Below, piece by piece: positions 8,764-41,644 of a DNA stretch of 45,380 nucleotides. The notes under the pieces were generated by a model that saw nothing but the letters and a program-made list of their open reading frames with translations, was not told the DNA's origin and made no database searches. The number at the start of each line of letters is the position of its first letter. Within the stretch, counting starts at the first letter, position 1. The DNA is from a virus (taxonomy: Duplodnaviria; Caudoviricetes). The translations under genes and the position numbers were made by a program. Location: IMG/VR virus record IMGVR_UViG_3300037834_000026, positions 1 to 45,380 of that record; one strand, 5' to 3'.

Positions 8764-9516
8764 TTACGCCGCATTGGCCAACACTCCCTGCTTGTCGATC
8801 AGGTGTTGCAGGGCGATGGTGAGCGCGGAGAAGCGCTGCGGGTTGGACCTGGAAACGTCGCCCAGAACGGTCGTGAACGCGTTGAACAGCGACCAGAGCG
8901 TGCGTTCGCCGAAGTCCTCGAACGTCGGGGTGCGCCACTCGGCCAGGACGCGCGGGAGCATGCGGTGGCTCACGATGTCCTGGTCGTAGGCGCGGAGCAT
9001 GATGCTCTCGGCCCGCTCGTCGGTGAGCGGCGTGTGCTGGAACTGGCGGACGCGCGCCTCCTCGGTTTCGCGGAACTGGTGGAGCGACTGGACGGCGCGG
9101 GACAGCGCTTCGCCGAAGCGGACTTCGCCGAACCGGGTGTGCTTGCGCGCGACGGTGATCTCTGACCGGAAGGCCAGGTTGTCGCACACGAACACTCGGG
9201 AACCGGCGCAGAACGCGATGGGCAGGGACTTGTCGATGCTGTTGCGGACGCCGACCGCGAGCGTGACGCCCGTGGCGACGGCCGACTCGAGATCGAGCGT
9301 CCCGAAGAACCGTGCGTTGCCGCGTGACAGGGCCATCCGAACCGTTCGGATGTTGAAGCCCGCCTGGTTCAGGCCGTCCTCGACGCGGCGCAGAACGGCG
9401 CCGTGCGAGAGCGGGAACCAAGTCTTGGTGGCCGGCGGTGCGGCCACGGCGTCCAACTCGGCGCGGTCAACGTGACGCGCGCCGGCGTGGACGACCAGAC
9501 TGCTGCTGGTGGACAC
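8764..9516 (-). CDS. DUF932-like phage/plasmid protein
   Basis: GVRNSIDKSL...FVCDNLAF...RKHT...TLWSLFNAFT; GTG start with GGAGG SD. Confidence 0.85.
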   Translation of the reverse strand: MSTSSSLVVHAGARHVDRAELDAVAAPPATKTWFPLSHGAVLRRVEDGLNQAGFNIRTVRMALSRGNARFFGTLDLESAVATGVTLAVGVRNSIDKSLPIAFCAGSRVFVCDNLAFRSEITVARKHTRFGEVRFGEALSRAVQSLHQFRETEEARVRQFQHTPLTDERAESIMLRAYDQDIVSHRMLPRVLAEWRTPTFEDFGERTLWSLFNAFTTVLGDVSRSNPQRFSALTIALQHLIDKQGVLANAA

Positions 9517-9590
9517 GGGTAGAGCCCTCCGATGGGGTAAAGGATCACTGGCCACAGCGGGGTGCTATGACTCGGCCAGTATCCACCCGT

Positions 9591-9695
9591 TCACCGGACG
9601 GGCGCAAACGGAAGATAGAGCAGGAAGGCGATGATTTGGGCCGCGACGATCACGGCCAGCCGTCTGTTGGGAAACGGCCAGTGCGTCAGGCGCAT
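9591..9695 (-). CDS. 34-aa TM peptide (not in ORF track)
   Basis: MRLTHWPFPNRRLAVIVAAQIIAFLLYLPFAPVR, 4 nt after the holin-like stop. Confidence 0.45.
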   Translation of the reverse strand: MRLTHWPFPNRRLAVIVAAQIIAFLLYLPFAPVR

Positions 9696-9699
9696 GCGC

Positions 9700-9882
9700 C
9701 TAGACGTTTTTGGGCGGCAGCGCGTGGCGCAGGCCCATGCCTTCCAGCGCGATGAGCGTGCCCGCGAAGGCCTCTTGCGCGGTCAGGGTTCCGGCCCACA
9801 CCTGCGACCACAGGTACACGATGCAGACGGTGCCGACGATGTACGTCTTCTTGCCGTTGATGATTTGCCAGAGGCGGATCAT
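9700..9882 (-). CDS. Putative holin
   Basis: NGKKTYI motif, two hydrophobic helices, GLRHAL; next to endolysin. Confidence 0.75.
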   Translation of the reverse strand: MIRLWQIINGKKTYIVGTVCIVYLWSQVWAGTLTAQEAFAGTLIALEGMGLRHALPPKNV

Positions 9883-9951
9883 TCGGGCTTGGGGAAAGGT
9901 GCCGCGATTCTATCACGGCGGAGCTTCACCGCGCGCCGGAAAGCCGGGATG

Positions 9952-10455
9952 TCAACCGTTCGGGTACGTGACCATGGAGGCGTCCCCGCCCTTCCAGAAC
10001 AGCAGGTAGGGCTCGAAATCGAAGTACCCGCTGTACCCGTTCCCGCCGTCGATCTCGCTGCCGTCCGCGCCGATCCGGCGCAGGCCGAGATGAAGGTGCA
10101 GGGCGGATGAGAAGCCGGTGTTGCCCATGACGCCCACGGCGTCGCCGAGCCGCACGCCATCGCCGGGCTTGACGCTGACCACGGAAAGGTGTGCCAGGAT
10201 CACTTCGCGCCGCGAGCCGGACACGTCGGGCGCGGTGCGCAGGCGGACGAACTTGCCGTACCCCTTGTCGCCCTGATCGCCGACTTCGTGGACCACGGCG
10301 TCGTAGGGCGAGAACACCGGCACGAGCTCTCCCGGACGCGCGCCGGTGAAATCGACGCCGTTGTGTCCTCTCAGGCCGAATTGCTTGTACACCTCCGGCC
10401 GCGCGCCGAAGTGCTGGGTGATGCGGCACGGCGATTTGACGGGGCAGAGGATCAT
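9952..10455 (-). CDS. M23 metallopeptidase endolysin
   Basis: HNGVDF (HxxxD), GYGKFV, AHLS, MGNTGFS..LHLH. Confidence 0.92.
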   Translation of the reverse strand: MILCPVKSPCRITQHFGARPEVYKQFGLRGHNGVDFTGARPGELVPVFSPYDAVVHEVGDQGDKGYGKFVRLRTAPDVSGSRREVILAHLSVVSVKPGDGVRLGDAVGVMGNTGFSSALHLHLGLRRIGADGSEIDGGNGYSGYFDFEPYLLFWKGGDASMVTYPNG

Positions 10456-10706
10456 TGCGTGCGGTACGAAGGGGATAGGGTGAACGATACGGAGTTTCCC
10501 AGGTCGATTTCTCGGCCCGCCATGAGCCGCGTTTGCAGCCGCTCTTCCACGAGGATCAGGCCGAGCGTGGAGTGCATTTCGTGCAGGTAGCGGACGTTGA
10601 TGACCACCAGGGCCACGACGGAAATCAGCGCGATCAGCGCGACCGTCCCGTCACGGTTGAACACACGGCTGTAAAGATCGGCAGAGGGGATAGGCAGCTT
10701 GTTCAT
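10452..10706 (-). CDS. Single-TM lysis-region protein
   Basis: VALIALISVVALVVI; TGGTATACT extended -10 upstream. Confidence 0.65.
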   Translation of the reverse strand: MNKLPIPSADLYSRVFNRDGTVALIALISVVALVVINVRYLHEMHSTLGLILVEERLQTRLMAGREIDLGNSVSFTLSPSYRTQ

Positions 10707-10759
10707 GCGGTAATGCCGCCGAGTATACCAGACGGCGGCTGTCCGCGCACCCGCACCGG

Positions 10760-12367
10760 CTAGTAGATGATCTGCACGTTGGAGCCCGCCGTTCCGCTGG
10801 AGCCGTTCGCCCCGGGGCTTCCCGAGCCGCCGCCCTCGCCGGCGATTCCTCCGGTGCCGCCGGAGCCCGCCGTCAGGGTGAACCCGCCGGACCACGAAGC
10901 CTTGTCGCGGTAGCCCAGAAGGACCGCTCCGCCGTTTCCGCCGGAGCCGCCGCCTCCGCCGCCGGCCTGCGACGAGGAGCTGAACCCGTTGCCTCCGTTC
11001 CCGCCGTTGCCGCCGATGGACTCGAAGTTCCAGGTGCCCGATAGGCGGTAGATGAAAGCCACGATGTTACCGCCGTTCGCGCCGCTGCCGCCGCCGCCTC
11101 CGCCTCCCGCGTTCGCGGCGTTGCCCGCTCCGCCGCCTCCGCCGCCCGATCCGGGCCCGGCGTTCAGGCGCGTGTACGTCCCGCCCGAGATGTCGGCGAA
11201 GAAGTACGCGAACTTCGGGCTGATCTGCGCGGTGTGGATCGTGGACGTTCCGGCCGCGCCGCCCGCGCCGCCCGTTCGGTTGCTCACGTCGCCGCCCGCT
11301 CCGCCCGCCGCGCCGGTGATGGCGATGACGGCGTTGGACTTCGACGGGCCTGCGGTCCCGGCGTTGCCGTTGTTCAGCCCGCTCGCTCCCGCGCCTCCGG
11401 CCACGCCCGCCTGGCCCGGCGTCACGGTCACTCCGGCCGCCGCAGTCCCGGCGGTCCCGGCGGTGCCGCCCGTGGAGTTCGATCCGTTGCCGCCGTTTCC
11501 GCCGTTGCCCCCCGTCGGCGCCTTGATCTTGCCGCTGCCCGAGCAGACGCCGCGCACGAACACGCGGTAGCCCGCCGTATTCAGCGTGAACGTCGAAAGG
11601 TTCAAATTCATGTAGTGCATGTCCCGCGTCAGGGTGGCGTCCCCGGTGAGCGTGACGTCGCCGTCCCTGCCGTCGCCGTAGTAGGACTCGTCCGTCTGCT
11701 CCTGGAGCGCCAGGGTCCAGTTCGTGCCGTCGAAGACGAACACGCCCGTCTGTTTGGGGTACAGGGTGGTGATGACGGTGGAGGACTGCTTCATGGTCAG
11801 CGCCACGCGGTCGTCCACGTTGCGGACGACGAAGTGGTTGCCCTCGCTCATGTTCGTGGTTTCCAGCGTCACGTCGCGGGCGGTGCCGTTGGGGTTCAGA
11901 ATCTGGTAGTACTTGGCGGTGGACGTGAGCGTCTTGTTGCCCGAGAGGGTTTCCACGTTGACCAGCGTGGACGATCCGAGCTCGCCGCCCACCACGTCGG
12001 GCTTCCAAATCGATATGGCGGTGATCTCCCCGCCCACGCAAGTCACGGTCCCGAGACGGCCGTTGGCGGTCGTCCAGGTCGTCGTGTTGATGGCGATGGT
12101 GTTGTCGCTCTTGATCTCCACATAGTTCGTGGCGTCATCCGTCAAGGCGATGTCGGTGTCGCCGCCGAACTGGCCGGTGGTGGTGCCGACGCGCCAGTTG
12201 AAGGGTGCGATGTCGATCATTAACGGCGTGCCCGACGCGGCCTCCCAAATGCGGCCACGGTCGTTGCCCAAGCTGTAGATGTCGTCCAGGTCTTCGTTGA
12301 TGTCCTGCAACCGGCTGGCGCTCACGTTGTCGCCGGTGTTCCAGGTGGATGAATGCTGGCGCGGCAT
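10760..12367 (-). CDS. Tail fibre/receptor-binding protein with Gly-rich C-terminus
   Basis: GGNGGNGG and GGGGG runs, YGDGRDGDVT motif, end of tail module. Confidence 0.8.
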   Translation of the reverse strand: MPRQHSSTWNTGDNVSASRLQDINEDLDDIYSLGNDRGRIWEAASGTPLMIDIAPFNWRVGTTTGQFGGDTDIALTDDATNYVEIKSDNTIAINTTTWTTANGRLGTVTCVGGEITAISIWKPDVVGGELGSSTLVNVETLSGNKTLTSTAKYYQILNPNGTARDVTLETTNMSEGNHFVVRNVDDRVALTMKQSSTVITTLYPKQTGVFVFDGTNWTLALQEQTDESYYGDGRDGDVTLTGDATLTRDMHYMNLNLSTFTLNTAGYRVFVRGVCSGSGKIKAPTGGNGGNGGNGSNSTGGTAGTAGTAAAGVTVTPGQAGVAGGAGASGLNNGNAGTAGPSKSNAVIAITGAAGGAGGDVSNRTGGAGGAAGTSTIHTAQISPKFAYFFADISGGTYTRLNAGPGSGGGGGGAGNAANAGGGGGGGSGANGGNIVAFIYRLSGTWNFESIGGNGGNGGNGFSSSSQAGGGGGGSGGNGGAVLLGYRDKASWSGGFTLTAGSGGTGGIAGEGGGSGSPGANGSSGTAGSNVQIIY

Positions 12368-12368
12368 G

Positions 12369-12962
12369 TCAGTTGATGGTGATGGAACAGTTGACGGTCA
12401 ATGTCTCGTTCGGCCCGATGGCCTGGTTGATGGCGGCGTGGGACAGCAGGTAGCCGCTGTTGGCGCTGCCGCTGCCGTCCACGAAGATGCCGGCTTCCAG
12501 GTAGGTGTTGCCGCCCACCTGGGCGTTGCCGAAGTACACGTTCAGGTACGCGACGTTGCTCTCGGCGAAGCGGTTGGTGAATTGCGCGCGCAGGGTTTCC
12601 GACTGGAGCATCATGTCCGAGTTGGCGGGTGCGGCGCTGCCGGTCCCCAGCGCGAAGTAGTTGGCCTTGAAGGTCGGCGTGACGGTCGTTCCCGAGATGA
12701 GCGTGGCCAGGGAGTTACGGAGTTGGCTGGGGACCAAGTTGCTGTACCGCTCTGCCGGGAAGTTGGTCATGCCCTTGGCCGTCATGTGCAGCCACGCCTT
12801 CAAAGCGTAGCCGCCCTCGCGGAAGGACCGGCGGATTTCCTCCTCGGCGATCTTGACTCGCTCCGCCCACGACTGCATGGTCAGGAACTCAACGATCTGG
12901 TCTTCGGTGGCGCGGATGAAGGAATAGTTCTCGCGGACGGCGAGCTGTGCGGCCTGCTTCAT
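12369..12962 (-). CDS. Tail tip/fibre-attachment protein
   Basis: YFALGTGSAAP..SD..L..E and EAGIF motifs. Confidence 0.7.
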   Translation of the reverse strand: MKQAAQLAVRENYSFIRATEDQIVEFLTMQSWAERVKIAEEEIRRSFREGGYALKAWLHMTAKGMTNFPAERYSNLVPSQLRNSLATLISGTTVTPTFKANYFALGTGSAAPANSDMMLQSETLRAQFTNRFAESNVAYLNVYFGNAQVGGNTYLEAGIFVDGSGSANSGYLLSHAAINQAIGPNETLTVNCSITIN

Positions 12963-15643
12963 GCTGCGGAGGAGAAGGATGCGACGGCCGGGTTGCTCTG
13001 GCTCTCGGCCACCGTCGGCGCGACCAGTATATCAGAGAACGCGATGGTCCCGGCCGCCTGGTACAGCGACAGTTCGATGCCGATGTACGCGGTGCTGGCC
13101 CCGGTGGTGAACGCGGCCTGCCGCCAGGCGAAATCCTGCTTGGCGGTGACGCCCGAGAAGAGGGTGTTCGTGACCAGGGCGGTGCCGCCCCGCGCCACGG
13201 AGTACTCCTTCACCAGCACGCGCGCGCCGCCCCCGGTTCCCACGTTGGTGAGCGCGGCCGCGACCTTGAGCCACACGCCGATGGTGTACGCGGTGCTGGC
13301 GTAGGCCGGCAGGTAGAACAGCAGGGTGGCCTTGGCCTCTTTGCCGCTGCCCCCGCCGGCGGCGGTGATGCGCAGCTCGGCGTCGTTGTTGTACTCCGAC
13401 GAGGCGAATTGGATGGTGCCGGTCTCGCCGCCCGCGAACGCGGCGTACCAGTTGGTGAAGCGTCTGGGGATTCCGTAAAGCGCGTCGTTGGCGCCGATGA
13501 TCCCGGTGGAGCTCGCCGAACCGGCGAGGCCTTCGAACCGGATGCGCCGGGAGTCCACGAGCGCGGCCGTGAAGGTCTTGCTTTTCTTGGAATACGTGGC
13601 GGCGTCGGCTACCGTGACCGTCTCGTCCACGTTCAGGATGATTTCCAGGAAGTCCGACGGTTTCAGGTCCACCGACTGCGCGCGCCGGACGAGCATCTGG
13701 AAGAACTCGATGACGCCGTACATGACGGACGCGGCGGTGACGGCGTAGTGGAAGCGGTCCCGGTATCGCTGCTTGTACTGGACGCGCTGGATGAGGAAGT
13801 CCTGGTCGATGCCACGGTTCACGTCGGTGATGCGGATGACCTGGCCGGCGTGCAGCCCGTCGTGGTCGGTCTCGAACGTGGCGGTCAGCACGGCGTTGGC
13901 GTACTGCGCCAGCTCCGCCCGCGCGCGGATCAGGGCGTCCTCGAAGGAGCCGATGGAGGCGTCGCTGATCGGCGCGCCGTCGAAGATGCCGTCCCCGCCC
14001 ACCAGGGACTTCATGAGCGCGATGGAAGCGTTGTCCTGCGCCCGCACGCGGATGGGCTTGTACGGGAACCCCGTGAAGACGACGACTTGGCCTTCGGTAG
14101 GCGTGCCGGCCGTGGACGTGCGGACCACTTTCTCCTGGAAGTTGGAGAGGTACTGCACCGTGTCGGGATCAACGAGGTTCTCCTCGCCGAGCGTCTGCGG
14201 CGTGCCGTCGATGGTCATGGACAGCGTCTTCATCTTGTAGTCCAGCGTGAACGACGACTGCTCGCCGTCGGCCACGATGGTTTGCGTGTACAGGTTGGCG
14301 TCCGGTGCCTCGCCGCCGAGCACGACGATGCGGTTGAGCAGGTGCGTGATGTCGGGGTCGATCTTGAGGTTCCCGTAATTGCTGGTGGCGCTGCCCGGCG
14401 TGTTGTCCAGGCTGAACGGCGCGGTCCCGGCCTGCTGCGGCGAGAGGTGCACGTCGCGGTTGTAGTCGATGTACCAGACGTCGGACAGCCGCTTGGCCAG
14501 GTCGTCGATCACGTCGGTGGGGCGGCGGTAACTCACGCGCAGGTCATCGAACTTCACCGGCCCGCGCACGCAGTTCTGGAGCGTGAAGCCGCCGGTGGTG
14601 GCGTGCATGTGGTCGAAGGAGAGCGCCGGGGACGCCATCGCGGCGGTTGCCGTCACCGAGAGCTGCAACCACGTCACGCCGTCGAGGGTCGGCGATCCGG
14701 CGGCGGCGGAGGGGCTGTCCAGCGTCACGCTCTCGTAGTTCCAGCAGTCGGAGAAGTCGCCGCCGATGTTGGCGATGTCGAACTCGTAGTAGTTGCTGGC
14801 GTCCTGCCCGATCCGCAGCTTGAGCGCGGTGACGACGTTGCCGAACCCGGCGGCCAGCTTCCACCAGAACCGCAGCTTGGAGTACGCGCGCAGGTCCACG
14901 GACGTCACCGTCTTCGTCCAGGTGGCGACCCCGGCGCCGGACGTGCCGGCGGCCTGCGAGTAGCTGCCCTGGATGCGGTCTGCGTTGTCGCTCATGGCCA
15001 GGCCCACGCCGCCGTGGGTCCATGCTGCATCGAACAGGTCTACGTTGTAGGACGTGTCGGGCGGGCAGAAGAAGTAGACGATGCGGCCCACGATCTCCCG
15101 CGCGTACTGGTTCAGGAAGTTCATCACCACCTGCTTGGCGTCGAACAGCAGCGACAGGTCGGCGCACTGGACGTTGTACGTGAACGTTCCGGTGTAGCCG
15201 ATCTCGGTTTCCGGGCACTTGATGCAAATGCCGGCGAACAGCGGCTCGCCGTCGTCGTGCAGCTTGCCGATCCTGGCGGTGGTGGCGAACGTCGCCGCCA
15301 GGTTGGCCGTCAGCGTCACCGTCTTCGCGGCGTGATCGACGGAGAGGACCGTGTACGTCGCCTGGTCCGCCCCGCCGATGCCGACGAGGAGCCGGACGCC
15401 GGCGGCTATCTTGTTGGTCTGCGGGTACGTGTCGGCCACGTTGAGGACCGGCTGGCCCGACGCGGCCGGCTGGGTGAGCTGCAAGCCCTCGTAGACGGTC
15501 ACCACCTGGCCGTAGGTGACGGCCTGCTGGAGCGTGGTGAAGCTCGCGGTGTCCCGCCGGCTCTGCAACTGCTCCGTCAGCTTGAAGGAGGACTCCTGCA
15601 CGGAGGCGGAAATGTCCGTGGAGTTGGCGAAGACCAGGAGCAT
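12959..15643 (-). CDS. Large tail hub/central tail protein (894 aa)
   Basis: ATG 15643 overlaps TMP stop; WYIDYNRDVH, NRIVVLGG, GLHAGQVIRI...FLIQRV; carbohydrate-binding-like C-terminus. Confidence 0.8.
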   Translation of the reverse strand: MLLVFANSTDISASVQESSFKLTEQLQSRRDTASFTTLQQAVTYGQVVTVYEGLQLTQPAASGQPVLNVADTYPQTNKIAAGVRLLVGIGGADQATYTVLSVDHAAKTVTLTANLAATFATTARIGKLHDDGEPLFAGICIKCPETEIGYTGTFTYNVQCADLSLLFDAKQVVMNFLNQYAREIVGRIVYFFCPPDTSYNVDLFDAAWTHGGVGLAMSDNADRIQGSYSQAAGTSGAGVATWTKTVTSVDLRAYSKLRFWWKLAAGFGNVVTALKLRIGQDASNYYEFDIANIGGDFSDCWNYESVTLDSPSAAAGSPTLDGVTWLQLSVTATAAMASPALSFDHMHATTGGFTLQNCVRGPVKFDDLRVSYRRPTDVIDDLAKRLSDVWYIDYNRDVHLSPQQAGTAPFSLDNTPGSATSNYGNLKIDPDITHLLNRIVVLGGEAPDANLYTQTIVADGEQSSFTLDYKMKTLSMTIDGTPQTLGEENLVDPDTVQYLSNFQEKVVRTSTAGTPTEGQVVVFTGFPYKPIRVRAQDNASIALMKSLVGGDGIFDGAPISDASIGSFEDALIRARAELAQYANAVLTATFETDHDGLHAGQVIRITDVNRGIDQDFLIQRVQYKQRYRDRFHYAVTAASVMYGVIEFFQMLVRRAQSVDLKPSDFLEIILNVDETVTVADAATYSKKSKTFTAALVDSRRIRFEGLAGSASSTGIIGANDALYGIPRRFTNWYAAFAGGETGTIQFASSEYNNDAELRITAAGGGSGKEAKATLLFYLPAYASTAYTIGVWLKVAAALTNVGTGGGARVLVKEYSVARGGTALVTNTLFSGVTAKQDFAWRQAAFTTGASTAYIGIELSLYQAAGTIAFSDILVAPTVAESQSNPAVASFSSAA

Positions 15644-31030: not shown

Positions 31031-31037
31031 GGCCCGG

Positions 31038-32704: not shown

Positions 32705-32846
32705 AGCGCACGGGTGGAGCCACAGCGGAGGCAGATATAGAACCTCCGACCGCCGCACGAATGGGAATACTCGTAATTGTGGTGTAGTTGCCCAATACAG
32801 TACGGGGCGATGGAAAGCCAGACGAGGAATTGTTCGAGAAGTTGCC

Positions 32847-33050: not shown

Positions 33051-33280
33051 TCAGCCGGGAACAACAGCTTGTGCATGTAATAGTCCATCAGGACAAGGTA
33101 GTTTTCTGCCAGGACCTTGCCCTGGCCAAGCTCGAATCGTGCGATGCTGGCGATGCTCAGGCCGGTATCCGCTGCAACTTCTTCCAGCGTGATCTCGTTC
33201 GCGCGTCGCCTGCATCGGAAATCCTCACCCTGCTTCTTGATATGTTCCTGTGCCCGCGAGCGGAGATTCGAGGCGTTCAT
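33047..33280 (-). CDS. XRE/Cro-family HTH regulator
   Basis: RRRANEITLEEVAADTGLSIASIARFELG. Confidence 0.85.
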   Translation of the reverse strand: MNASNLRSRAQEHIKKQGEDFRCRRRANEITLEEVAADTGLSIASIARFELGQGKVLAENYLVLMDYYMHKLLFPAE

Positions 33281-34770
33281 GCGGCGACAGCAGGAGCGGG
33301 CAGGCCGAACTGAGCGCGGACCATCGCGGCCGCGTTCGGCGGACAGACAGAGTTGCCGCACATCCTGACCTGGGCGGTCTTGCTCAGCGGCTTGCCCCGG
33401 AACTCCGGGTCGATCTGGTAGTCGTCCGGGAAGCCCTGCGCGCGGTACAGTTCGCGCGGCGTGAGCATCCGCAGGCCGATGTCGGCGATGACGTACTGCT
33501 CGCCGCGGATCGTTACCACCGGCTCGGCGCGACCGTCCCCGTCGTGATTGACCAGGAATGTCCGGACCTCGGCCAGATGCTGGCCCTGGGCGCTGATCGT
33601 CGCCATGGGGTCCGTCACGGGCTGACCGTGGCGGCACGTTCCACGCAGCTTCACGAGGCTCGACGTCACGACGGTGTGGTGTGCCCCGGTGGTGACGGTC
33701 TTGAGCGGCGCTCGCGGCGACGTTGGCGCGTTCCCGGTCGTGTTGTGCATCAGGTTGGCGACGACCAGGCTGTGGTGGTCCCTAGCTGTCACCGTCCCCA
33801 TCGCGTCTTTCATCTTGCTGCCGACCACTCCGGTGTAATGCTTGGCCAGGAACGCCGTGACCAGGGCGTGCTTCTGCCCGCCGGCGACTACGGTTCCGAG
33901 CGGCTTGTCCAGGCCCGGAGCGCGCGGTGCCTGGCCGTCACGCTCGCCGTACCCGGTCTGGACCAGGGTGGCACCGGCGCCATGCACGACGAACGGGTCC
34001 GGTGACTCGATGACGAACCGGCGCAGCCCGGCGGCGACGCGGCGCAGCGTGTTCTTTGCCAGCGGCTTCTTGCGGCCGAAGATGGACGGACACGGGATCG
34101 ACCAGTCGATGCATTCCGCCGCAGTCCGCCATGGTTGCAACTCGCCGCCTTTCGGGCCGTATTGCGGCTCCGGGAAGATGATGGGCTTCTCGTCGCAGCG
34201 CGCCACGATGAACAGGCGTTTTCGGATGGTGGGCGCACCGTAGTCACACGCCCGCAGGGGCTTGGCCTTTACGGCGTAGCCCAGGGTTTTCAGTTGCTTC
34301 TCCCAGCGATCATACGTGGAGCCCTTCCGCTGCTTGCAGGGCAGGCCAGTGTCATCCAGCGGCCCCCAGTCCCGGAACTCCTCGACGTTCTCCAGGATGA
34401 TGACGCGCGGCCGGACCGCCTTCGCCCACTTCACGACGATCCAGGCGAGGCCGCGAATCTTCTTGCTGACGGGCTTGCCGCCCTTCGCCTTGGAGAAATG
34501 CTTGCAGTCCGGGCTGAACCAGGCCAGGCCTACGGGGCGGCCGGCGCAGGCATCGGCGGGGTCCACTGTCCACACGTCCTCGCAGTAGTGGCGCGTAGCC
34601 GGATGGTTGGCCCGGTGCATTGCGATGGCTTCCGGGTCATGGTTGATGGCGATGTCCGGCGAGCGGCGCAGCGCCATTTCGATCCCGAGCGATGCGCCGC
34701 CACCGCCGGCGAAATTATCGACGATGAGTTCGCCGGGGAGGAGGCCGACGGCGGCGCCCAGCGTGCTCAT
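33277..34770 (-). CDS. Phage-type orphan C5 cytosine methyltransferase
   Basis: DNFAGGGG, FSPDCKHFS, LENVEEF, RKRLF, RMLTPREL..AQGFP, CGNSVCP. Confidence 0.93.
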   Translation of the reverse strand: MSTLGAAVGLLPGELIVDNFAGGGGASLGIEMALRRSPDIAINHDPEAIAMHRANHPATRHYCEDVWTVDPADACAGRPVGLAWFSPDCKHFSKAKGGKPVSKKIRGLAWIVVKWAKAVRPRVIILENVEEFRDWGPLDDTGLPCKQRKGSTYDRWEKQLKTLGYAVKAKPLRACDYGAPTIRKRLFIVARCDEKPIIFPEPQYGPKGGELQPWRTAAECIDWSIPCPSIFGRKKPLAKNTLRRVAAGLRRFVIESPDPFVVHGAGATLVQTGYGERDGQAPRAPGLDKPLGTVVAGGQKHALVTAFLAKHYTGVVGSKMKDAMGTVTARDHHSLVVANLMHNTTGNAPTSPRAPLKTVTTGAHHTVVTSSLVKLRGTCRHGQPVTDPMATISAQGQHLAEVRTFLVNHDGDGRAEPVVTIRGEQYVIADIGLRMLTPRELYRAQGFPDDYQIDPEFRGKPLSKTAQVRMCGNSVCPPNAAAMVRAQFGLPAPAVAA

Positions 34771-34849
34771 GCGGCGAGGCGTTCGGCCAGCATTTGCTCT
34801 CGGGTGGGTTCACTGGGCATGTTCAGGTTGGGAAAGGGGGGCAGGGGGG

Positions 34850-35146
34850 TCAATCATCGCCGTAGTGATCGCAGACGTACTCCATGATCTCTTCCAGCGT
34901 CGGCCGCGTGACTGTCTCCCGGTTGACGTGGTAGCACATCACCAGGCAGCGGAATTGCTCGGCTGCGCGGTCCCACCAGACGATGCCGCAGAAGTTCCAC
35001 CCGCTGTATTGCATGGCGATTTCTTCGGTCTTCAACCTCGCCTCCAGGCACTTGTCGATGGAATGGTCGAAGTTGGTCATGACGGACTCGTCGATGAACG
35101 GGTACGGCGGTTCGATGATGACATTCGCGCTGTTATTGCTCGTCAT
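34850..35146 (-). CDS. Hypothetical protein
   Basis: 98 aa in operon context. Confidence 0.7.
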   Translation of the reverse strand: MTSNNSANVIIEPPYPFIDESVMTNFDHSIDKCLEARLKTEEIAMQYSGWNFCGIVWWDRAAEQFRCLVMCYHVNRETVTRPTLEEIMEYVCDHYGDD

Positions 35147-35399
35147 TGGGGGTGGGGAAGGTTAAATCCTCGACTTGCTGGGCGAGAAAAAGAGACAGAA
35201 TGAAAACGATGCCGATGTTTCCAATCGCCAGGATTAAGCCCATCGGTCGATGCGCGATAATCCAGTCATTTAACGCGGTTGTAAAAGTGCCGAGAAGCAT
35301 CCCGTAAAACGTGAAGAGAAGCGCCCAGAGAAACGCCAGTCGGTCCAGCTTTTCCCGCAACTCCTGGTCATGGGCCGGTTCTGATGCGGCGGTGTTCAT
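35133..35399 (-). CDS. Two-TM membrane protein
   Basis: LAFLWALLFTFYGMLLG and LILAIGNIGIVFILSLFL; locally AT-richer. Confidence 0.65.
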   Translation of the reverse strand: MNTAASEPAHDQELREKLDRLAFLWALLFTFYGMLLGTFTTALNDWIIAHRPMGLILAIGNIGIVFILSLFLAQQVEDLTFPTPNDEQ

Positions 35400-35731
35400 G
35401 CAGCGACGCGGTTTACGAGGCCAAGGGCAACGTTGACATCCATCCAGAAAGCGACGTTTCCGTTCTCGGCGTCCATCCAATTGCATGCCATCTTCCACTC
35501 GCCATCTTCGCGGACGAGGATGCCCTGCTCTCGGATGCGCGCAATGATCTCGCGGATGCGCGGGCGCGACAGGGACACGAGCGGTGCCAGCTGCCGGAGG
35601 GTCGGCAGGTAGCCGGTGCCAACGGCCAGCAGGATCACGGCGACCTGGAAGGCTACGTCCTCTTCGCTCAACTTCGGATCAAGGTCGTGGGCCAGTGCTT
35701 TGACTTCTTCCGGGGTGAGGTTGGCGCTCAT
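35396..35731 (-). CDS. Possible winged-helix protein
   Basis: LRQLAPLVSLSRPRIREIIARIREQGIL. Confidence 0.6.
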   Translation of the reverse strand: MSANLTPEEVKALAHDLDPKLSEEDVAFQVAVILLAVGTGYLPTLRQLAPLVSLSRPRIREIIARIREQGILVREDGEWKMACNWMDAENGNVAFWMDVNVALGLVNRVAA

Positions 35732-35790
35732 AACGTGAGGAGTGAAAGGATGGGTCCGCCGATGCAGAGGGCGTAGAAGATGGTGGTCAT
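35728..35790 (-). CDS. 20-aa hydrophobic peptide
   Basis: MTTIFYALCIGGPILSLLTL; ATGA overlaps at both ends. Confidence 0.5.
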   Translation of the reverse strand: MTTIFYALCIGGPILSLLTL

Positions 35791-35942
35791 TTGGCTTTTG
35801 GAGAAGGCGGCGGACAGCGGAGCCAGTGGCGCCATAAACCGGTGTTTGTCTTGATGCCGTTTTCCTTCCGGCGCTTGGCGGCCAGGGCGCGGTCCTCGTC
35901 GTCCATGTAGATGGTGGTGGGCTTGGGGTTCTGTAACGTCAT
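35787..35942 (-). CDS. 51-aa ribbon-helix-helix-like regulator (not in ORF track)
   Basis: MTLQNPKPTTIYMDDEDRALAAKRRKENGIKTNTGLWRHWL...; ATG 6 nt after TATCCT. Confidence 0.65.
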   Translation of the reverse strand: MTLQNPKPTTIYMDDEDRALAAKRRKENGIKTNTGLWRHWLRCPPPSPKAK

Positions 35943-35948
35943 GGCCAA

Positions 35949-36017
35949 AGGATACATGAGCTAGTGCAAGATGCAATAGACAAACCTATTGCATTATGAT
36001 GTTACCCGTGCTACTAT
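35949..36017. promoter_or_regulatory. Divergent promoter pair/genetic switch
   Basis: Rightward TTGCAT-N17-TACTAT (35989-36017); leftward TTGCAT-N16-TATCCT (35976-35949); inverted repeat ATGCAATAG-N6-CTATTGCAT. Confidence 0.75.
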
Positions 36018-36044
36018 GTTCACGTCACTTCCCCACACATCTCT

Positions 36045-36461
36045 ATGGCTCTCAAGCCACTCACCCCGGAAGAACTCGCCACCGAAGAGGCGCGCATCCA
36101 GGCCTACGAAGACCAGGGCATGACGCGCAGCGATGCGCAGGGACGCGTCGAAGCCGAAGACAGGTTCCCGGAGGACAAGACCACAGCACCGGCGCACACT
36201 CCTGGACCGTGGAAAGCCCTCAACTGGATGGTGTACGACGGAAACGACAAGCCGATCTGCGAATGCAAAGGCAAGGTGGTCGGGGCTGGCCTCTCCGCTC
36301 CCGACCACAATGCCAACCGCATCGTCGCCTGCGTGAACGCCTGCGAGGGGTTGAACCCGGAGGCCGTGAAGGAAATGTACGAAATGCTCCGCGTCCTGAA
36401 CGAACGCCTGGATGATCCCGAAATTGACGCCCTGCTCGCCAAAGCCGAAGGCCGTTCCTGA
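36045..36461 (+). CDS. Phage early protein
   Basis: HTPGPW and ANRIVACVNACEG motifs common in phage early genes. Confidence 0.75.
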   Translation: MALKPLTPEELATEEARIQAYEDQGMTRSDAQGRVEAEDRFPEDKTTAPAHTPGPWKALNWMVYDGNDKPICECKGKVVGAGLSAPDHNANRIVACVNACEGLNPEAVKEMYEMLRVLNERLDDPEIDALLAKAEGRS

Positions 36462-36485
36462 TTCATTTCATCCTTCCTTCCTATC

Positions 36486-36899
36486 ATGGCCACCGCCAAC
36501 CCCACAGCACCGGCACGACTCGCCATCTTCGTCGCCACGAAGCAGACCCAGGGCAAACGCCGTTCGGATTTCTGCTGGTGCGAAGAGGACGAGCCGGTTC
36601 ACTTCTCGTCCCAGTGCGACGGCAACGACACCATCGACGGCGGTTGCGGGTGCCAGCGGTCCATGTCCGGTATGACCACGCTCAAGGCAACGACGACGGT
36701 TCGCGTGAAGGAATCGGACATGACCCGTGAGCAGTACATTCAGATGCTCGTGGACAGCTACAAGAAGGGAGGCTGGGGCGGCCTCATTCCATCTACTGAA
36801 ATCCACGCGGAAGCGGATGAACTACTCCGCCTCGCCGCTGCTTTCCCCGTTGGGACCGTTATCGAGAAACGCGGCGACGAATTGCGACAGCGAGCCTAG
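36486..36899 (+). CDS. Cys-rich uncharacterised protein
   Basis: VATKQTQG..SDFCW.EE.E...DGGCGC.RS.SG....ATTT. Confidence 0.75.
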   Translation: MATANPTAPARLAIFVATKQTQGKRRSDFCWCEEDEPVHFSSQCDGNDTIDGGCGCQRSMSGMTTLKATTTVRVKESDMTREQYIQMLVDSYKKGGWGGLIPSTEIHAEADELLRLAAAFPVGTVIEKRGDELRQRA

Positions 36900-36905
36900 C
36901 GTTGT

Positions 36906-36944
36906 GCGGCTCGTTGGAGCCGCCCCTGGTGGGCTTACTCACCA
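36906..36944 (+). repeat. Two-hairpin intergenic motif, copy 1
   Basis: GCGGCTC/GAGCCGC then TGGTGGG-CTTA-CTCACCA. Confidence 0.6.
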
Positions 36945-36971
36945 CTGCTCTATCACAGCAAAGGCAACCAA

Positions 36972-37145
36972 ACGAGGATCGGAAGCTGGCGTGGTATCAA
37001 CGCGGGACCGCTAATGCAATCCCGCACATCGGGACGCCGAGCCACACATGGCAGGTGCGTACGCCCGGTTCGCAACCGGAAACGCCTAGCGCACGAAGTG
37101 GGCAGGGGGAAAGTATGCCCCCTGCCGCCAGCTTCCGGTCCTCGT
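36972..37145 (+). ncRNA. Putative multibranched structured RNA
   Basis: 20-bp closing stem (one U.G) enclosing at least five internal stems. Confidence 0.65.
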
Positions 37146-37161
37146 CTTATCCAATACCAAC

Positions 37162-37248
37162 ATGCCTCCCATGTACTACTTCGAACCCCAGGAAGTCCGT
37201 CTCACGACGTTCTCCGGCAACGTGATCGTCCTGCCCCTCCGATGGTAG
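37162..37248 (+). CDS. 28-aa peptide
   Basis: MPPMYYFEPQEVRLTTFSGNVIVLPLRW; overlaps next start. Confidence 0.4.
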   Translation: MPPMYYFEPQEVRLTTFSGNVIVLPLRW

Positions 37249-37337
37249 CCGCGATCATCGCCCTCATCATCGGCCTCTGCATCATCATCGATCTCGTCCG
37301 GCACCTGCTGGACGGCACTTCCATCTTCCTCCCATGA
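37242..37337 (+). CDS. 31-aa hydrophobic peptide
   Basis: MVAAIIALIIGLCIIIDLVRHLLDGTSIFLP; ATGA-coupled to next gene. Confidence 0.6.
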   Translation: MVAAIIALIIGLCIIIDLVRHLLDGTSIFLP

Positions 37338-38110
37338 CACACAACACCTTCACCATCGGCCGCCCGCGCCGGCCCCTGTTCCACTTCGTCCCCGCCGCAG
37401 AGAACGCGGCACCCGCTCGCCGCTCCGTCGGCACGGTCCTGCACGGAAAGTTTCTGGATTGGCTGGCCGCTTCCGACATCCGCAAGCTGGCAACCCGCTC
37501 CGCCATGATCCTCCTGCTGGCCGGGCTCGTCGGCAGCACCCAGTTCACGCTCGGCCTGCTCACCGCCGCCGCCAAGTGGAACGGCTACCGCATCCCGCTC
37601 TTCCTCGCGCTGCTCGCTCTGACGTTGAACGCCAAGACCATTTTCCTGGCATCAAGAAAATGGTCGCTCAGACGCCGGGGTGCCAATCAGCACACGTACC
37701 AGGGGCTCCCCGTGGACGAACTGGCGAGCTACCTGCTGGAGACGCGCGCCTTCACCCGCGACGCCGCGTGCCTCAAGTTCGCCATTTCCTGGAAGAAGCA
37801 CCAGCGCATCGCCGACGAACTCATGCACCACCAAGTGCTGGTCCGTGGCCCGGTGAACAACGCCCGCGTCCTCAACGAGAAGATCACCCGCGAGCAACTT
37901 GTCCGCCAGCTGCGCGAGAACTTCCCGCTCGCCTTCGCGGACGGGGAGTGGGTGGAGAGGCGCGGCAGCTACCACCTCTTTCTGCGGGACAAGGAACGCG
38001 CCGAGCAGAAGGAGCGCGAGCGCGTGGAACGCCTGGAGCGCCGGGCCGACCGGGCGGAACGAAAGCTCACCCGGACGACTGGCCTTCAAAGGCTGTTCGC
38101 GCAGACGTAG
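37334..38110 (+). CDS. Two-TM protein with FtsK-gamma-like winged helix and coiled coil
   Basis: Two hydrophobic helices; FAISWKKHQRIADELMHHQVLVRGPVNNARVL; KERERVERLERR tail. Confidence 0.65.
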   Translation: MTHNTFTIGRPRRPLFHFVPAAENAAPARRSVGTVLHGKFLDWLAASDIRKLATRSAMILLLAGLVGSTQFTLGLLTAAAKWNGYRIPLFLALLALTLNAKTIFLASRKWSLRRRGANQHTYQGLPVDELASYLLETRAFTRDAACLKFAISWKKHQRIADELMHHQVLVRGPVNNARVLNEKITREQLVRQLRENFPLAFADGEWVERRGSYHLFLRDKERAEQKERERVERLERRADRAERKLTRTTGLQRLFAQT

Positions 38111-38206
38111 CCGGTTGCAACGGCCGGAAAACCGGGGTTAAGCGGGGTTGCAACCGCCCGAGCAAACCGATGGCAAAACACACCGCTTATCCGCTTCCCG
38201 TGTCCC

Positions 38207-38626
38207 ATGCTGCAATTCTTCCCGATAGGCCTGACCTTCGCCGCGAGCATCGCGTTCGCGGACCAACCGCCGCCGGTTCCGCCGCGCACGCTCACCGTGA
38301 CCACAACGAGTTATAATCCCGAGCCCGGCCAGACGGACCACGCCCCGTGCATCGGCGCCTCCGGCCGCGACTTGTGCCTGGCCGCCCGCGAGGGCGACCG
38401 GACCATCGCGCTCTCCCGCGACCTGCTTGCGTACTACGGGCTGGGCGGGCGCTACCGCTGGCACGACAAGGTACGCCTCCGCTCCGCCGCGCCGGGCTGC
38501 AACGGCGTGTTCTCCGTCGAAGACACCATGAACGTCCGGTTCAGCCGCCGGGCTGACATCTTCTCCGCCGACCGCGCCCAGAATGTCGGCCGGTGCATTG
38601 CCACCGTGGAACCATTCGGGCAATAA
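38207..38626 (+). CDS. Secreted 3D-domain (MltA/RlpA-like) protein
   Basis: Signal peptide; TTTSYN...QTD..PCIGASG, IALSRDL, VEDTMN.RF..RADIF. Confidence 0.8.
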   Translation: MLQFFPIGLTFAASIAFADQPPPVPPRTLTVTTTSYNPEPGQTDHAPCIGASGRDLCLAAREGDRTIALSRDLLAYYGLGGRYRWHDKVRLRSAAPGCNGVFSVEDTMNVRFSRRADIFSADRAQNVGRCIATVEPFGQ

Positions 38627-38655
38627 TTCCCTTACTTCCTTTTCTTTTTCATCCC

Positions 38656-39036
38656 ATGCAAAAGTCATACATCGTCCCGTACTCGCTGGCCGCCGCCGCC
38701 CTCGCCATCGCGGGCCTGCTCCTGCTCACTGCGCAGAAGGCATCCGCCGCCGACTTCTCCAACGTCATCGGCGTCGATGCCGAACTGCGCATCGTGGAGC
38801 GCGTCACGGACAAGACCATTTTCCAGGACATCCGCCGCGTGCAGTCCTACCGCGTCACCGAAGTCAATGGCTCCGGCGCGCTGGTCACTCGCACGGAGAC
38901 GAACGAGTCCGCCGTGATCGCCAACAGCGACGTGGTAATCGACATCTGCCAGAAGGTGCAGCAACTCCTTGGTCTTTCCACCGAGGGCTGCGGGGTCAAA
39001 TCCGCTGGCCGCACCCGCCAGCCGAACGAGCGTTAA
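38656..39036 (+). CDS. Secreted hypothetical protein
   Basis: Signal peptide ...LAIAGLLLLTAQKASA. Confidence 0.7.
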   Translation: MQKSYIVPYSLAAAALAIAGLLLLTAQKASAADFSNVIGVDAELRIVERVTDKTIFQDIRRVQSYRVTEVNGSGALVTRTETNESAVIANSDVVIDICQKVQQLLGLSTEGCGVKSAGRTRQPNER

Positions 39037-39056
39037 TCCGCCGCGCACCGCGCGAG

Positions 39057-39083
39057 AGGCCCATCCGAACGGTGGGCCTTTTT
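39057..39083 (+). terminator. Intrinsic terminator
   Basis: AGGCCCATC-CGAAC-GGTGGGCCT-TTTT. Confidence 0.8.
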
Positions 39084-39195
39084 CGTGCAGAGAGCGGCAC
39101 CGAAGCTGCCCAAGACAGCGCGTCGGTGCCGCGTCAATTGCTTTGCGGATTCAGCCGTGCTAACAATGCTCGCCGTCCTTTCTCCTTCACCATCC

Positions 39196-39390
39196 ATGCC
39201 AGCACAAGTCAGCGATCAAATCCCACTGGACGAGTGGGCAGACTCCAAGAACGTCCCGCAGCGCACGGCGAACGGCTGGGCCAAGAGCGGCAAGATCAAG
39301 GCCAGAATGCAGACCGCGCTTGTGACCGTAACTGTCACCAGGAAGGTGCGGAAATACTTCGTGAACAAGAGCGAACCACTCCCGCAATAA
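39196..39390 (+). CDS. Small MerR/Xis-like HTH protein
   Basis: LDEWADSKNVPQRTANGWAKSGKIKA. Confidence 0.7.
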   Translation: MPAQVSDQIPLDEWADSKNVPQRTANGWAKSGKIKARMQTALVTVTVTRKVRKYFVNKSEPLPQ

Positions 39391-39405
39391 GTCAACGACT
39401 TCTTC

Positions 39406-39434
39406 TTGCGCGTTCAGCCACGCTGATATAGCAT
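39406..39434 (+). promoter_or_regulatory. Promoter containing a palindromic operator (leaderless)
   Basis: TTGCGC-N17-TAGCAT, ATG 6 nt later; TCAGC-CAC-GCTGA in spacer. Confidence 0.65.
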
Positions 39435-39440
39435 ACAGCC

Positions 39441-39632
39441 ATGCTTTCCACTGCCACCCCCGCCGTCACGAATCCTTGCCCGTGCTGCCTCGAAGAAGGA
39501 CACGAAATCCAGCTGCACCGCGTGACCGAAAACCCGGAAGGATACGGCGTCGTTCCCTTCTTCTACTGCGAACGCTGCGAGTACATGACGGACGAGGACA
39601 GCGGGCAGCCGGAAGTAGACGAACACAAATAG
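39441..39632 (+). CDS. Small Zn-ribbon protein
   Basis: CPCC...CERC. Confidence 0.7.
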   Translation: MLSTATPAVTNPCPCCLEEGHEIQLHRVTENPEGYGVVPFFYCERCEYMTDEDSGQPEVDEHK

Positions 39633-39661
39633 CACTTTCTTATTTCCATCCATCCCTTTCC

Positions 39662-40102
39662 ATGCTCCTCTCCGAAGCCCTCGCAGACCTCAAAGCCAGC
39701 TACCTCGCCGTTCAGAGTGAGAACGTCCAACGCCAGGCCATCATGGAAACGCCGGAGTACAAGGCGCTCAAAGAGAAGATGGACGCTATGCTCGCCGTCG
39801 TTCCTGACAGTTCCGATGAATACGCCGCCGACCTGGCCGCCACGCTCAAGTTCATGAACGAGAACGGGATTCACAAGGCCGAAGGATTCGTGGTCAAGAC
39901 CCGGGCCACCCGAAGCGTCGATGTCCTGGCCGTACTCCGCGCGATGGGCGGCGACATCGACAACCTCATGCTCGTTACGAACGTCACGCAGAAGAGCCTG
40001 GAGAAATTCATCAAAGACAACCCCGGCTACAAGGCCGACCTGCGCGCCTGCATTAAGGACGAGGGCGTTAAGGTTGTCGATGTCGCGCCACAAACCGTTT
40101 AG
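39662..40102 (+). CDS. Hypothetical protein
   Basis: Pyrimidine-rich leader; 146 aa. Confidence 0.7.
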   Translation: MLLSEALADLKASYLAVQSENVQRQAIMETPEYKALKEKMDAMLAVVPDSSDEYAADLAATLKFMNENGIHKAEGFVVKTRATRSVDVLAVLRAMGGDIDNLMLVTNVTQKSLEKFIKDNPGYKADLRACIKDEGVKVVDVAPQTV

Positions 40103-40128
40103 CTTTTATTTCCATTCTCCCCACGACG

Positions 40129-40359
40129 ATGAAAACTCAATCCGCCTGGGCCACCATCAGCGGCAAAGTGTACGTCTCGCAGGACGAAATTGACGACCTG
40201 CTCGCCGCCGGTGAAGACGAGGCCGGAAACAAGATCACGACGGAGCAAGACGCATTTAAACACCTGGCTGAGGCCAAGTTGTTCGCCCTGTTCCCGACCG
40301 ACGACCCGTTCAAGCACAACGAAACCGTGATCGACATGACTTCGCTGCGAACCAGCTAG
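40129..40359 (+). CDS. Hypothetical protein
   Basis: Pyrimidine-rich leader; 76 aa. Confidence 0.7.
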   Translation: MKTQSAWATISGKVYVSQDEIDDLLAAGEDEAGNKITTEQDAFKHLAEAKLFALFPTDDPFKHNETVIDMTSLRTS

Positions 40360-40370
40360 AGCCCAGCGGG

Positions 40371-40417
40371 TGCGGCCCGTGTCGTGGGGCCGGGCCGCAG
40401 CCGGTGCGCTTTGCACT
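40371..40417 (+). repeat. Two-hairpin intergenic motif, copy 2
   Basis: TGCGGCCCG/CGGGCCGCA then GGTGCG-CTT-TGCACT. Confidence 0.55.
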
Positions 40418-40438
40418 CATTCATTCCCAATTCACTCC

Positions 40439-40654
40439 ATGCCGACGTTCACCGTCCACCGCAAGGAATCCGTTGTCTCCGCCGCCGAGATCGAAGCCCG
40501 CGACGAGGCCCACGCGCTGCAAATCGCGCGCGCCCTTGAGGGCACCGAGAACCAGCCGAAGTACGCGGAGCAGTCGCGGTCGTCGCCGCGCCTGTCGATC
40601 CCCGGCTACTCGCCGCGCAAGGGCGACAAGCCCGACGATTCGGAGCAAGCCTAG
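40439..40654 (+). CDS. Hypothetical protein
   Basis: MPTFTV...EIEARDEAHALQIA. Confidence 0.7.
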   Translation: MPTFTVHRKESVVSAAEIEARDEAHALQIARALEGTENQPKYAEQSRSSPRLSIPGYSPRKGDKPDDSEQA

Positions 40655-40660
40655 CGGTGA

Positions 40661-40699
40661 GCCGCATGCCCCGCGTGCGGCCCCCGGTGGGCTTCCACC
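40661..40699 (+). repeat. Two-hairpin intergenic motif, copy 3
   Basis: GCCGCATGC/GCGTGCGGC then GGTGG-GCTT-CCACC. Confidence 0.6.
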
Positions 40700-40729
40700 A
40701 ATTTTTTACCCCATTCTCCCATTCTTACC

Positions 40730-41644
40730 ATGACTACCGCAGTCGCTACCAAGGAGGAGACGGCCCTGGCCGGACTCTCCGAAGACGAACAGGCGGCCCT
40801 CAAGGCCGACCGCGAAAAGCTGGGCGGCAAGTTCCCGTCCATCCCCATGATCCGCCTGGCGAACAAGGACATGGAACAGGCGCCCGAAGGCGAGTACTTC
40901 ATTGAGAAGCGCCTCGGCGACCAAGTGGAAATCACTCCCATCGGCAAAGACCCCGTCATCACCATCCTGTACCGCACGTTCACGTACAGCTACTACACGC
41001 CGGAACTGGGCCTGGTGGCCTGGACCAGCGACATCCACGGATTCACCGACTTGGATGACGTGGTGCTGTACAAGAAGGTCAACGGCCAGGTGGTCATCGA
41101 CTTCGAAGGCGTGTACCCGGCGCTCAAGAGGCACATGGAGGCCAAGTACAAGCAGAACGATCCCGTCACCGGCAAGGCCAAGAAGCTGCTCAAGTTCAAG
41201 ACCGTGCTGTACGTGAACTACAACGGCGGCATCTACAAGATGTTCGTCTCCAACGCCTCGTCGGCCGGCGTCGATCACGACGGGAACCCCAGCTTCGACA
41301 AGGCGCAGCCGAACTCGCTACAGGCCGTCATGGACGGCTACCGCAAGCAGAAGCGGGTGAGTTACGAGTTCTCCGTGATGCTCGGTTCCAAGCTGGTGAA
41401 GGGCGAGAAAAAGCCGTTCTACATCATGACCTTCGCGTCGCTGGCTCAACTGGACTCCGGCATGCTCCGGCAGTCCATGAAGCTGTCCCACGAAGTGCAG
41501 AAAACCATCGTCATGATCGATGACGCCCGCAAGGCGTGGAACAAGCGGGAGCAGGACAGTGAGTCGGAACCGATTCATGTTGAAGCGGATGTAGATAACG
41601 ACGAATACCTGTCCAAGATCAAGCCGGAAGATTTGCCCTTCTAG
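40730..41644 (+). CDS. Putative ssDNA-binding/annealing protein
   Basis: 304 aa with acidic tail ending EDLPF (SSB-like); early-region position. Confidence 0.6.
   Translation: MTTAVATKEETALAGLSEDEQAALKADREKLGGKFPSIPMIRLANKDMEQAPEGEYFIEKRLGDQVEITPIGKDPVITILYRTFTYSYYTPELGLVAWTSDIHGFTDLDDVVLYKKVNGQVVIDFEGVYPALKRHMEAKYKQNDPVTGKAKKLLKFKTVLYVNYNGGIYKMFVSNASSAGVDHDGNPSFDKAQPNSLQAVMDGYRKQKRVSYEFSVMLGSKLVKGEKKPFYIMTFASLAQLDSGMLRQSMKLSHEVQKTIVMIDDARKAWNKREQDSESEPIHVEADVDNDEYLSKIKPEDLPF

Follow-up and report, generated by a model that had tools for sequence, protein, structure and literature searches.

A recurrent join between a planctomycete-type integrative-mobilizable element and a phage of Candidate Phyla Radiation type

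Here, we describe a phage physically joined to an integrative-mobilizable element (IME) of another phylum's lineage, in the viral record IMGVR_UViG_3300037834_000026 (positions 1 to 45,380; hereafter, the window, meaning the whole 45,380-nucleotide stretch). The window comprises three blocks, namely, a left module of planctomycete type (1 to 9516), a middle phage (about 9590 to 42729) whose closest genomic relative is a prophage in a "Candidatus Peribacteria" metagenome-assembled genome (G001) of the Candidate Phyla Radiation (CPR), and a right block (42874 to 45380). As anatomy, a real and recurrent phage-IME composite across two phyla is well supported. No description of a planctomycete-module/CPR-phage join was found in the open-licence literature; subscription papers lie outside that scope, and the supplements of PMC9040852 may list such phages. 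Our preferred reading, a hypothesis with a probability of roughly 0.45, is that the window is a two-host element, which would persist in Gemmataceae as a prophage and undergo lytic growth in a Peribacteria-like CPR symbiont attached to that cell.

Translation leaders

An earlier note, made from the letters alone, had placed a switch from Shine-Dalgarno (SD)-led to SD-less starts near 9.6 kb and had proposed anti-SD pairing energies, codon profiles, best-hit taxonomy, and coverage as checks. Starts were scored in a curated gene set, from which ten entries had been excluded before counting (two without upstream sequence and eight with doubtful starts, one of which, at 42726, had a motif). An SD motif preceded 11 of 18 left genes and 0 of 45 phage genes, and anti-SD pairing reached a free energy (dG) of -5 kcal/mol or below in 12/18 left genes (up to 9516) versus 1/45 phage genes (9882 to 42418; Fisher P = 8e-8). 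The best change point fell between 9516 and 9882 and was reached by 0 of 5,000 permutations, so the switch stands. Because internal in-frame ATGs passed the dG cut-off equally in both parts (20% of 49 sites on the left, 21% of 184 in the phage), the SD difference is not explained by composition. Phage leaders were also poorer in G (0.15 versus 0.29) and more often at least 75% pyrimidine (21/45 versus 1/17), and phage start regions were less folded (-6.0 versus -9.2 kcal/mol; P = 0.003).

Some particulars of the note needed correction. Of the nine left starts said to have AGGAG or GGAGG, all have GGAG upstream (pairing, -6.4 to -13.0 kcal/mol) and six have a literal AGGAG or GGAGG, those at 3446, 3678, and 5604 having GGAG alone; six of seven quoted phage leaders were exact, and that at 38656 carried one T too many. 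The SD-less block does not end at 41000 but extends to 42729, after which the third, non-phage block begins. Codon profiles did not separate the segments: GC content at third codon positions (GC3) is 0.875 on the left and 0.878 in the phage, and overall GC and most codon families are likewise unchanged at the junction, so that GC, GC3, and codon usage are useless as junction markers.

Comparison sets were called with a home-made gene caller, whose automatic start sites are approximate. Phage parts had SD fractions of 0.05 to 0.07 and fractions of leaders with at least 75% pyrimidine of 0.47 to 0.53. Four high-GC genomes of the class of G001, which we infer to be the Gracilibacteria of GTDB, had SD fractions of 0.12 to 0.14, and two named planctomycete plasmids had 0.48 to 0.49, with 0.00 to 0.04 for the pyrimidine leaders. 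G-poor pyrimidine leaders preceded 15 to 32% of genes in high-GC genomes of the class versus 0 to 6% in planctomycete references. The SD fraction was at most 0.21 in 18 of 20 stretches from the class; one stretch binned there (L452; G065:C8) has 63% SD-led genes, unlike the rest, and is possibly a misbinned phage contig.

Origin of the three blocks

The left module opens with a Gemmataceae-type tyrosine integrase (1 to 1167, plus strand; phrog_1, E = 1e-23), the only integrase found in the window. It is 68% identical to a protein of Gemmata sp. G18 and up to 82% identical to unnamed metagenome proteins; out of 120 listed homologues, the four that carry an organism name all belong to Planctomycetota (Gemmata sp. 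G18, 68% and 64%; Urbifossiella, 65%; Planctomycetaceae, 57%), in line with the resemblance to Planctomycetota elements that the note had proposed. At its other end, the last SD-led gene encodes a DUF932 protein (8764 to 9516, minus strand; PF06067), which is 43% identical to a plasmid gene of Planctomyces sp. SH-PL62. Searches of class genomes, in sets without a positive control, matched neither the integrase (0/401) nor DUF932 (0/301), and the integrase had 0 matches among viral records. Fifteen metagenome loci with close DUF932 genes resemble cellular elements, as 0 of 75 upstream proteins match a PHROG for head, tail, connector, or lysis functions at 1e-8; when the regions upstream of DUF932 were aligned, no clear conserved element end appeared.

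The right block (42874 to 45380) encodes Vsr, a C5 methylase (Dcm), and an HNH nuclease. Because the phage-free locus L356 holds Vsr and Dcm (59% and 36% identical, respectively) upstream of DUF932, the right block is likely part of the planctomycete element, with the phage inside it. The best organism-named homologue of the HNH nuclease is from Isosphaeraceae (39%), with CPR in 0 of 6 named; the block is non-CPR and likely cargo of that element.

The best genome match of the phage TerL (59%) lies in a 499,835-bp contig of G001 (28 of 64 parts of the collection scanned). There, a prophage flanked by host genes shares 12 orthologues with the window phage in conserved order; it has SD-poor leaders and its own serine recombinase. 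Two relatives identified by the tail tube, G317 and G320, have 73 and 48 in-frame TGA codons, opposite which Gly stands in 31/61 and 26/40 ungapped positions, and reading through TGA raises coding cover from 0.20 to 0.94 and from 0.27 to 0.93. The TerL of G317 is open under code 25, which PMC9297842 gives as the code of Gracilibacteria and Absconditabacteria. Resemblance to phages of SD-poor Patescibacteria/CPR, also proposed in the note, is thus borne out, and best-hit taxonomy assigns module and phage to different lineages. Only 3 of 401 class genomes match window positions 22800 to 42780 (two by distant TerL DNA, one by a low-complexity repeat). A 36-bp match in G244 was considered as a spacer of clustered regularly interspaced short palindromic repeats (CRISPR) and rejected, being a 9-nt tandem repeat.

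Recurrence and assembly

The same architecture occurs in G002 (IMGVR_UViG_3300020215_000063; 48,338 bp, a whole contig). Its module has integrase, excisionase, prim-pol, relaxase-like, ATPase, and DUF932 genes in the order and polarity of the window. It sits directly behind the lysis genes, in a phage of CPR type that has pyrimidine leaders but unrelated head genes. Since the two ends of the record meet in frame within the coupling ATPase (a 603-codon open frame, to which residues 8 to 471 of the window ATPase align in one piece), G002 is likely one circle. A tRNA-Phe gene lies just before the integrase; its full-length identity to class tRNAs does not exceed 81%, and its best match in a plasmid collection is in Tsukamurella (86.7%). 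The module also holds a TIGR02996 protein, and the phage fibre has homologues in class genomes.

In the DUF932 phylogeny, the window protein pairs with that of phage-free L341 (97/98), and the G002 protein nests among phage-free elements (100/100). The approximately unbiased (AU) test rejects window and G002 DUF932 as one clade (P = 7e-13; the group was named after the tree was seen). Judged from these sequences, the two joins arose independently. Nine module-free relatives lack DUF932 (0/4 and 0/5 in two families; three have terminal repeats), and in G313 and G314 the lysis genes converge on the early genes with no module between. A related, SD-led phage family (G003, G308, and G309) carries DUF932-to-coupling-ATPase modules at the same late/early convergence point; the module of G309 has opposite polarity and a TrwC relaxase, and the G003 record ends inside its module. 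Among 11 viral records with a close DUF932, the module stands beside a phage in 4 (G002, G003, G308, and G309), 6 have DUF932 but no coupling-ATPase module in the stretch seen, and 1 is too short. Of the cross-phylum capture put forward in the note, the two lineages hold; a one-off event is not supported, as the join recurs independently and both parts have the same codon usage and GC.

A single 53,383-bp contig covers window positions 1 to 20000 without differences, with no joints at 9.6 kb and a depth of 14.6. No coverage break is seen there, and the depth is even along the contig (about 15). The junction (9517 to 9590) coincides with the leader change point and showed no terminal repeat or att site; a repeat search of the window, whose ends are cut at gene boundaries, found no att-like repeat at either junction, and promoter scans of both were negative. 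The record runs from the integrase ATG to the HNH ATG, as would be expected for a provirus cut at gene ends. A 130,329-bp contig is recorded as the source of the integrase, TerL, and HNH, each separately. An assembly chimera, the alternative raised in the note, is accordingly disfavoured and can hardly be right: although a single run contains the sequence and may be its source, and the contig check reached the left junction only, the undisturbed contig, the codon signature common to both sides, and above all the recurrence in G002, a stronger argument than the contig evidence, stand against it.

Shared composition

Codon models of the two modules recognized their own phages, as 24/34 window phage genes fit the window module and 35/37 G002 phage genes fit the G002 module (P = 5e-11); the reciprocal fit was 11/13 and 6/10. 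With five module models, the own module came first for 21/34 genes in the window, 29/37 in G002, 22/49 in G003, and 46/46 in G308, with a tie for G309 (16/47). Module and phage GC track each other in 5/5 composites, including G308 (0.507/0.493), and the window has 64% GC versus 42 to 53% in module-free relatives. Because GC and codon usage are common to both, module and phage have long replicated together.

This could have happened in a high-GC Peribacteria lineage, had the module moved there and the whole element come to live in CPR cells. High-GC genomes of the class do exist, with the leader style of the phage, and a relative lysogenises G001. We nevertheless regard this as improbable, given that the module genes keep SD sites, neither the integrase nor DUF932 was found in the 401 and 301 class genomes searched, respectively, the right flank is non-CPR, the G002 tRNA-Phe reaches no more than 81% identity to class tRNAs, and the G002 module holds a TIGR02996 protein.

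Proposed cycle and its alternatives

Under the two-host reading, the module would have joined the phage at the convergence of the late and early operons, where an insertion disrupts least. The integrase, excisionase, and prim-pol of the module, all SD-led, would be read by planctomycete ribosomes and would integrate, excise, and maintain the whole unit, and long replication in the planctomycete would have given both parts one GC and codon signature. The phage genes, being translated in the CPR cell, would still be selected for G-poor pyrimidine leaders. To reach that cell, the excised circle might use the relaxase-like protein and the coupling ATPase together with a helper system for transfer, or it might travel by DNA uptake or in virions. 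Selection on the leaders and passage to the CPR cell are the least supported steps.

The unit probably replicates in a planctomycete because the module keeps SD sites, has an integrase of a living Gemmataceae family, and is flanked by non-CPR DNA. Translation in a CPR cell is suggested because the phage is intact, its virion genes being full length, and keeps G-poor leaders that are common in class genomes and rare in planctomycete references. Probable planctomycete replication and suggested CPR translation together favour two hosts, and we infer the episymbiont link. Co-enrichment of planctomycetes with a Peribacter in a single culture is reported in PMC9040852.

Several observations weigh against the two-host reading. 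According to PMC9040852 itself, a direct planctomycete-Peribacter association could not be established. Contigs binned as Neomarinimicrobiota (55%) and Calditrichia contain TerL relatives as well. The join is not CPR-phage-specific because the phages of three composites (G003, G308, and G309) are SD-led. Genomes of 61 to 63% GC exist in the class of G001, so the GC of the phage requires no planctomycete. A codon-based host assignment was dropped because the classifier was unreliable, miscalling 33/54 genes of class genome G031 and 9/14 of L359 (window phage score, -0.001). Mating-pair families were absent among the 66 window proteins, and the relaxase call is below its cut-off. A crude scan saw no lipobox (spanin-like) gene in the lysis cassette and found none in G308 either. 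Finally, unstructured SD-less leaders could work in planctomycetes, for which PMC5397173 reports many non-SD genes.

The main rival is a host jump, in which a CPR-derived phage would now infect and lyse planctomycetes, with the module as its lysogeny unit and the pyrimidine leaders inherited and tolerated. The composition that phage and module have in common fits such a jump equally well, a strong SD is missing from roughly one in two planctomycete plasmid genes, the phage start regions are less folded, and a short basic hydrophobic peptide (30 to 34 amino acids [aa]) ending both CPR-type lysis cassettes could replace spanins. We consider it less likely, since none of the 45 phage genes carries an SD motif despite long co-replication, pyrimidine tracts of this kind almost never occur in planctomycete references, class genomes contain homologues of the M23 lysin and of the G002 fibre, and CPR phages would have to have jumped to a diderm phylum twice, independently.

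Foreign phage DNA might instead be inert cargo, taken up by planctomycete elements and now a passenger, as the 15 phage-free loci have varied cargo upstream of DUF932. This is highly doubtful: the virion genes have kept their full length, G002 appears to be a single circle, and the G-depletion of the leaders persists after compositional convergence, which needs continuing selection.

The two-host reading can be put more broadly, at a slightly lower probability: through a family of IMEs, planctomycetes may harbour, as prophages, intact phages of their CPR episymbionts (and perhaps of further parasites or predators) and pass them on to the attached cell. Each host would have its own translation style, and Gemmataceae would be named as Peribacteria hosts. 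The hosts of Peribacteria are not established, and the twice-arisen join of a Peribacteria-lineage phage with a Gemmataceae element makes this pairing testable. Either leading reading is unusual: the phage would depend on two phyla, or it would have changed host across phyla, a jump legible from leader style. If the two-host cycle is true, a virus likely waits inside the larger bacterium and points to a host for these CPR symbionts. The case also shows that an integrase or the DNA around a phage, when used to predict a host, can point to the wrong organism for the lytic cycle; leader style offers an inexpensive way to spot composites of this kind.

Further features of the window

All module genes that follow lie on the minus strand. 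An excisionase-like helix-turn-helix (HTH) protein (1168 to 1428; PF12728, E = 1.3e-9; phrog_66) has a counterpart in G002, as does the prim-pol replication protein (2512 to 3285; PF09250, E = 9.5e-7), 31% identical to it; a scan of viral records with a prim-pol alignment matched G002 only. A 55-aa gene (4449 to 4616) has a pyrimidine-rich SD-less leader and a weak homologue of the same leader style in the G002 module (phmmer E = 0.002). In both elements, such small genes (46322 to 46689 in G002) sit beside the relaxase-like gene and have SD-less pyrimidine leaders, in contrast to the adjacent genes. The Replic_Relax-like protein (4804 to 5604), with a predicted winged helix and PD-(D/E)xK-like domain, scored 22.1 bits against PF13814, under the 25.3 cut-off; its homologue in L354 scored 29.1 bits, above it. 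Its structure model (predicted local distance difference test [pLDDT], 77.5) had no Foldseek match at E ≤ 1e-3, and weak matches were mostly to restriction-type nucleases. It is likely a relaxase and is called putative here; restriction-like relaxases are known as MOBC (PMC11389934).

The TrwB/TraG-like coupling ATPase (5421 to 6926) has no Pfam match but falls in ESM Atlas T4CP clusters (0.97), with template modelling (TM) scores of 0.73 to 0.78 to TrwB_AAD_bind-type models; its top ESM Atlas cluster is 82% viral (56 members), which hints at many further phage-borne copies. A sigma-factor-like protein (7511 to 8158) rests on a weak NCBIfam match (E = 6e-4), and a conserved small gene that follows DUF932 in related modules (8299 to 8718) has 27 to 36% matches in L354, L358, L359, L363, and L369. 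No tRNA, tmRNA, or Rfam family was found in the window.

The phage block begins with a lysis cassette (9591 to 10706, minus strand) of a 34-aa hydrophobic peptide, a 60-aa holin-like protein, an M23 peptidase (41% to G002 and 39% to a stretch of class genome G220), and an 84-aa membrane protein. The cassettes of both CPR-type composites end, next to the module, in the basic hydrophobic peptide mentioned above (window, 9591 to 9695; L323:2660-2752). The tail module (10760 to 21668, minus strand) comprises fibre-like, tail tip, tape measure, chaperone, tail tube, neck, and adaptor genes, with PHROG matches for tape measure and neck and near full-length orthologues in G317, G319, and G320. At the end of the first chaperone gene, an A run followed by G (17694 to 17702, minus strand), with a second overlapping frame (17445 to 17678), likely marks the usual programmed frameshift. 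Head and packaging genes (21732 to 30503, minus strand), namely, Mu gpT-like capsid, decoration, protease, portal-MuF fusion, TerL, and TerS, are ordered as in the G001 prophage. A 9.6-kb, 63%-GC fragment (L161) carries the window's head module with SD-poor leaders and could belong to another composite.

Replication and regulation genes (31238 to 35942), recognized by profile matches and a repeat search, encode a DnaD-like initiator, RusA, an HTH protein, and a C5 methylase. The initiator gene contains eight copies of a repeat with a 12-nt period (31489 to 31672), a likely replication origin. The early-promoter stretch (36000 to 36034, plus strand) is 94% identical to that of G002 (35933 to 35968) over 36 aligned columns, despite unrelated head genes, and is a possible operator; its 13-nt core was missing from four relatives without a module (G313, G314, G317, and G319). 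The early genes (36045 to 42729, plus strand), all SD-less, have homologues in module-free G313 and G314. The protein encoded at 38207 had no match in 43 genomes of G001's order, and no integrase or transposase was matched in the phage block among the 66 proteins scanned. Elsewhere, a module-free CPR-type phage (G313) encodes an RtcB RNA ligase (L488:14153-15319), and the Planctopirus limnophila "plasmid" pPLIM01 (L470; NC_014149.1), with annotated terminase, portal, capsid, tail, and two integrases, is a circular prophage.

Comparison with known systems

Like iMOB IMEs, as defined in PMC11389934, the window has an integrase, an excisionase, a relaxase-like protein, and a coupling protein and no mating-pair system. 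Unlike them, it couples its module to a full lytic gene set from the phage lineage of another phylum, for which the module supplies the only integrase, and its relaxase is putative. Code-25 CPR phages are described in PMC10746230 and PMC13059738, and the former also treats phages co-targeted by CPR and non-CPR CRISPR spacers, mainly of Saccharibacteria and Actinobacteria. In those, too, a phage is tied to a CPR bacterium and a larger one; there the link consists of spacers, whereas the window offers a physical join with separate translation signals for each module.

The Peribacteria/Gracilibacteria-type phages (the G001 prophage, G317, G319, and G320) have the same head-tail gene order, 25 to 59% identity, and SD-less leaders. 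They differ in that the G001 prophage has its own serine recombinase and the free relatives are without DUF932, and the window uses code 11 and has a higher GC content. Mu-like transposable phages have gpT-like capsid, I-like protease, portal, and MuF families in common with the window, but in head families alone; that identity was rejected, as neither the DDE transposase MuA nor MuB was matched among the 66 window proteins. A phage satellite was likewise rejected, a full head and tail set being on the same molecule. Mavirus, an endogenous virophage of the eukaryote Cafeteria, integrates in its host, needs a helper giant virus, and acts against the parasite of that host; it serves as an analogy only, for the proposed step in which a host would carry an integrated virus against its own parasite.

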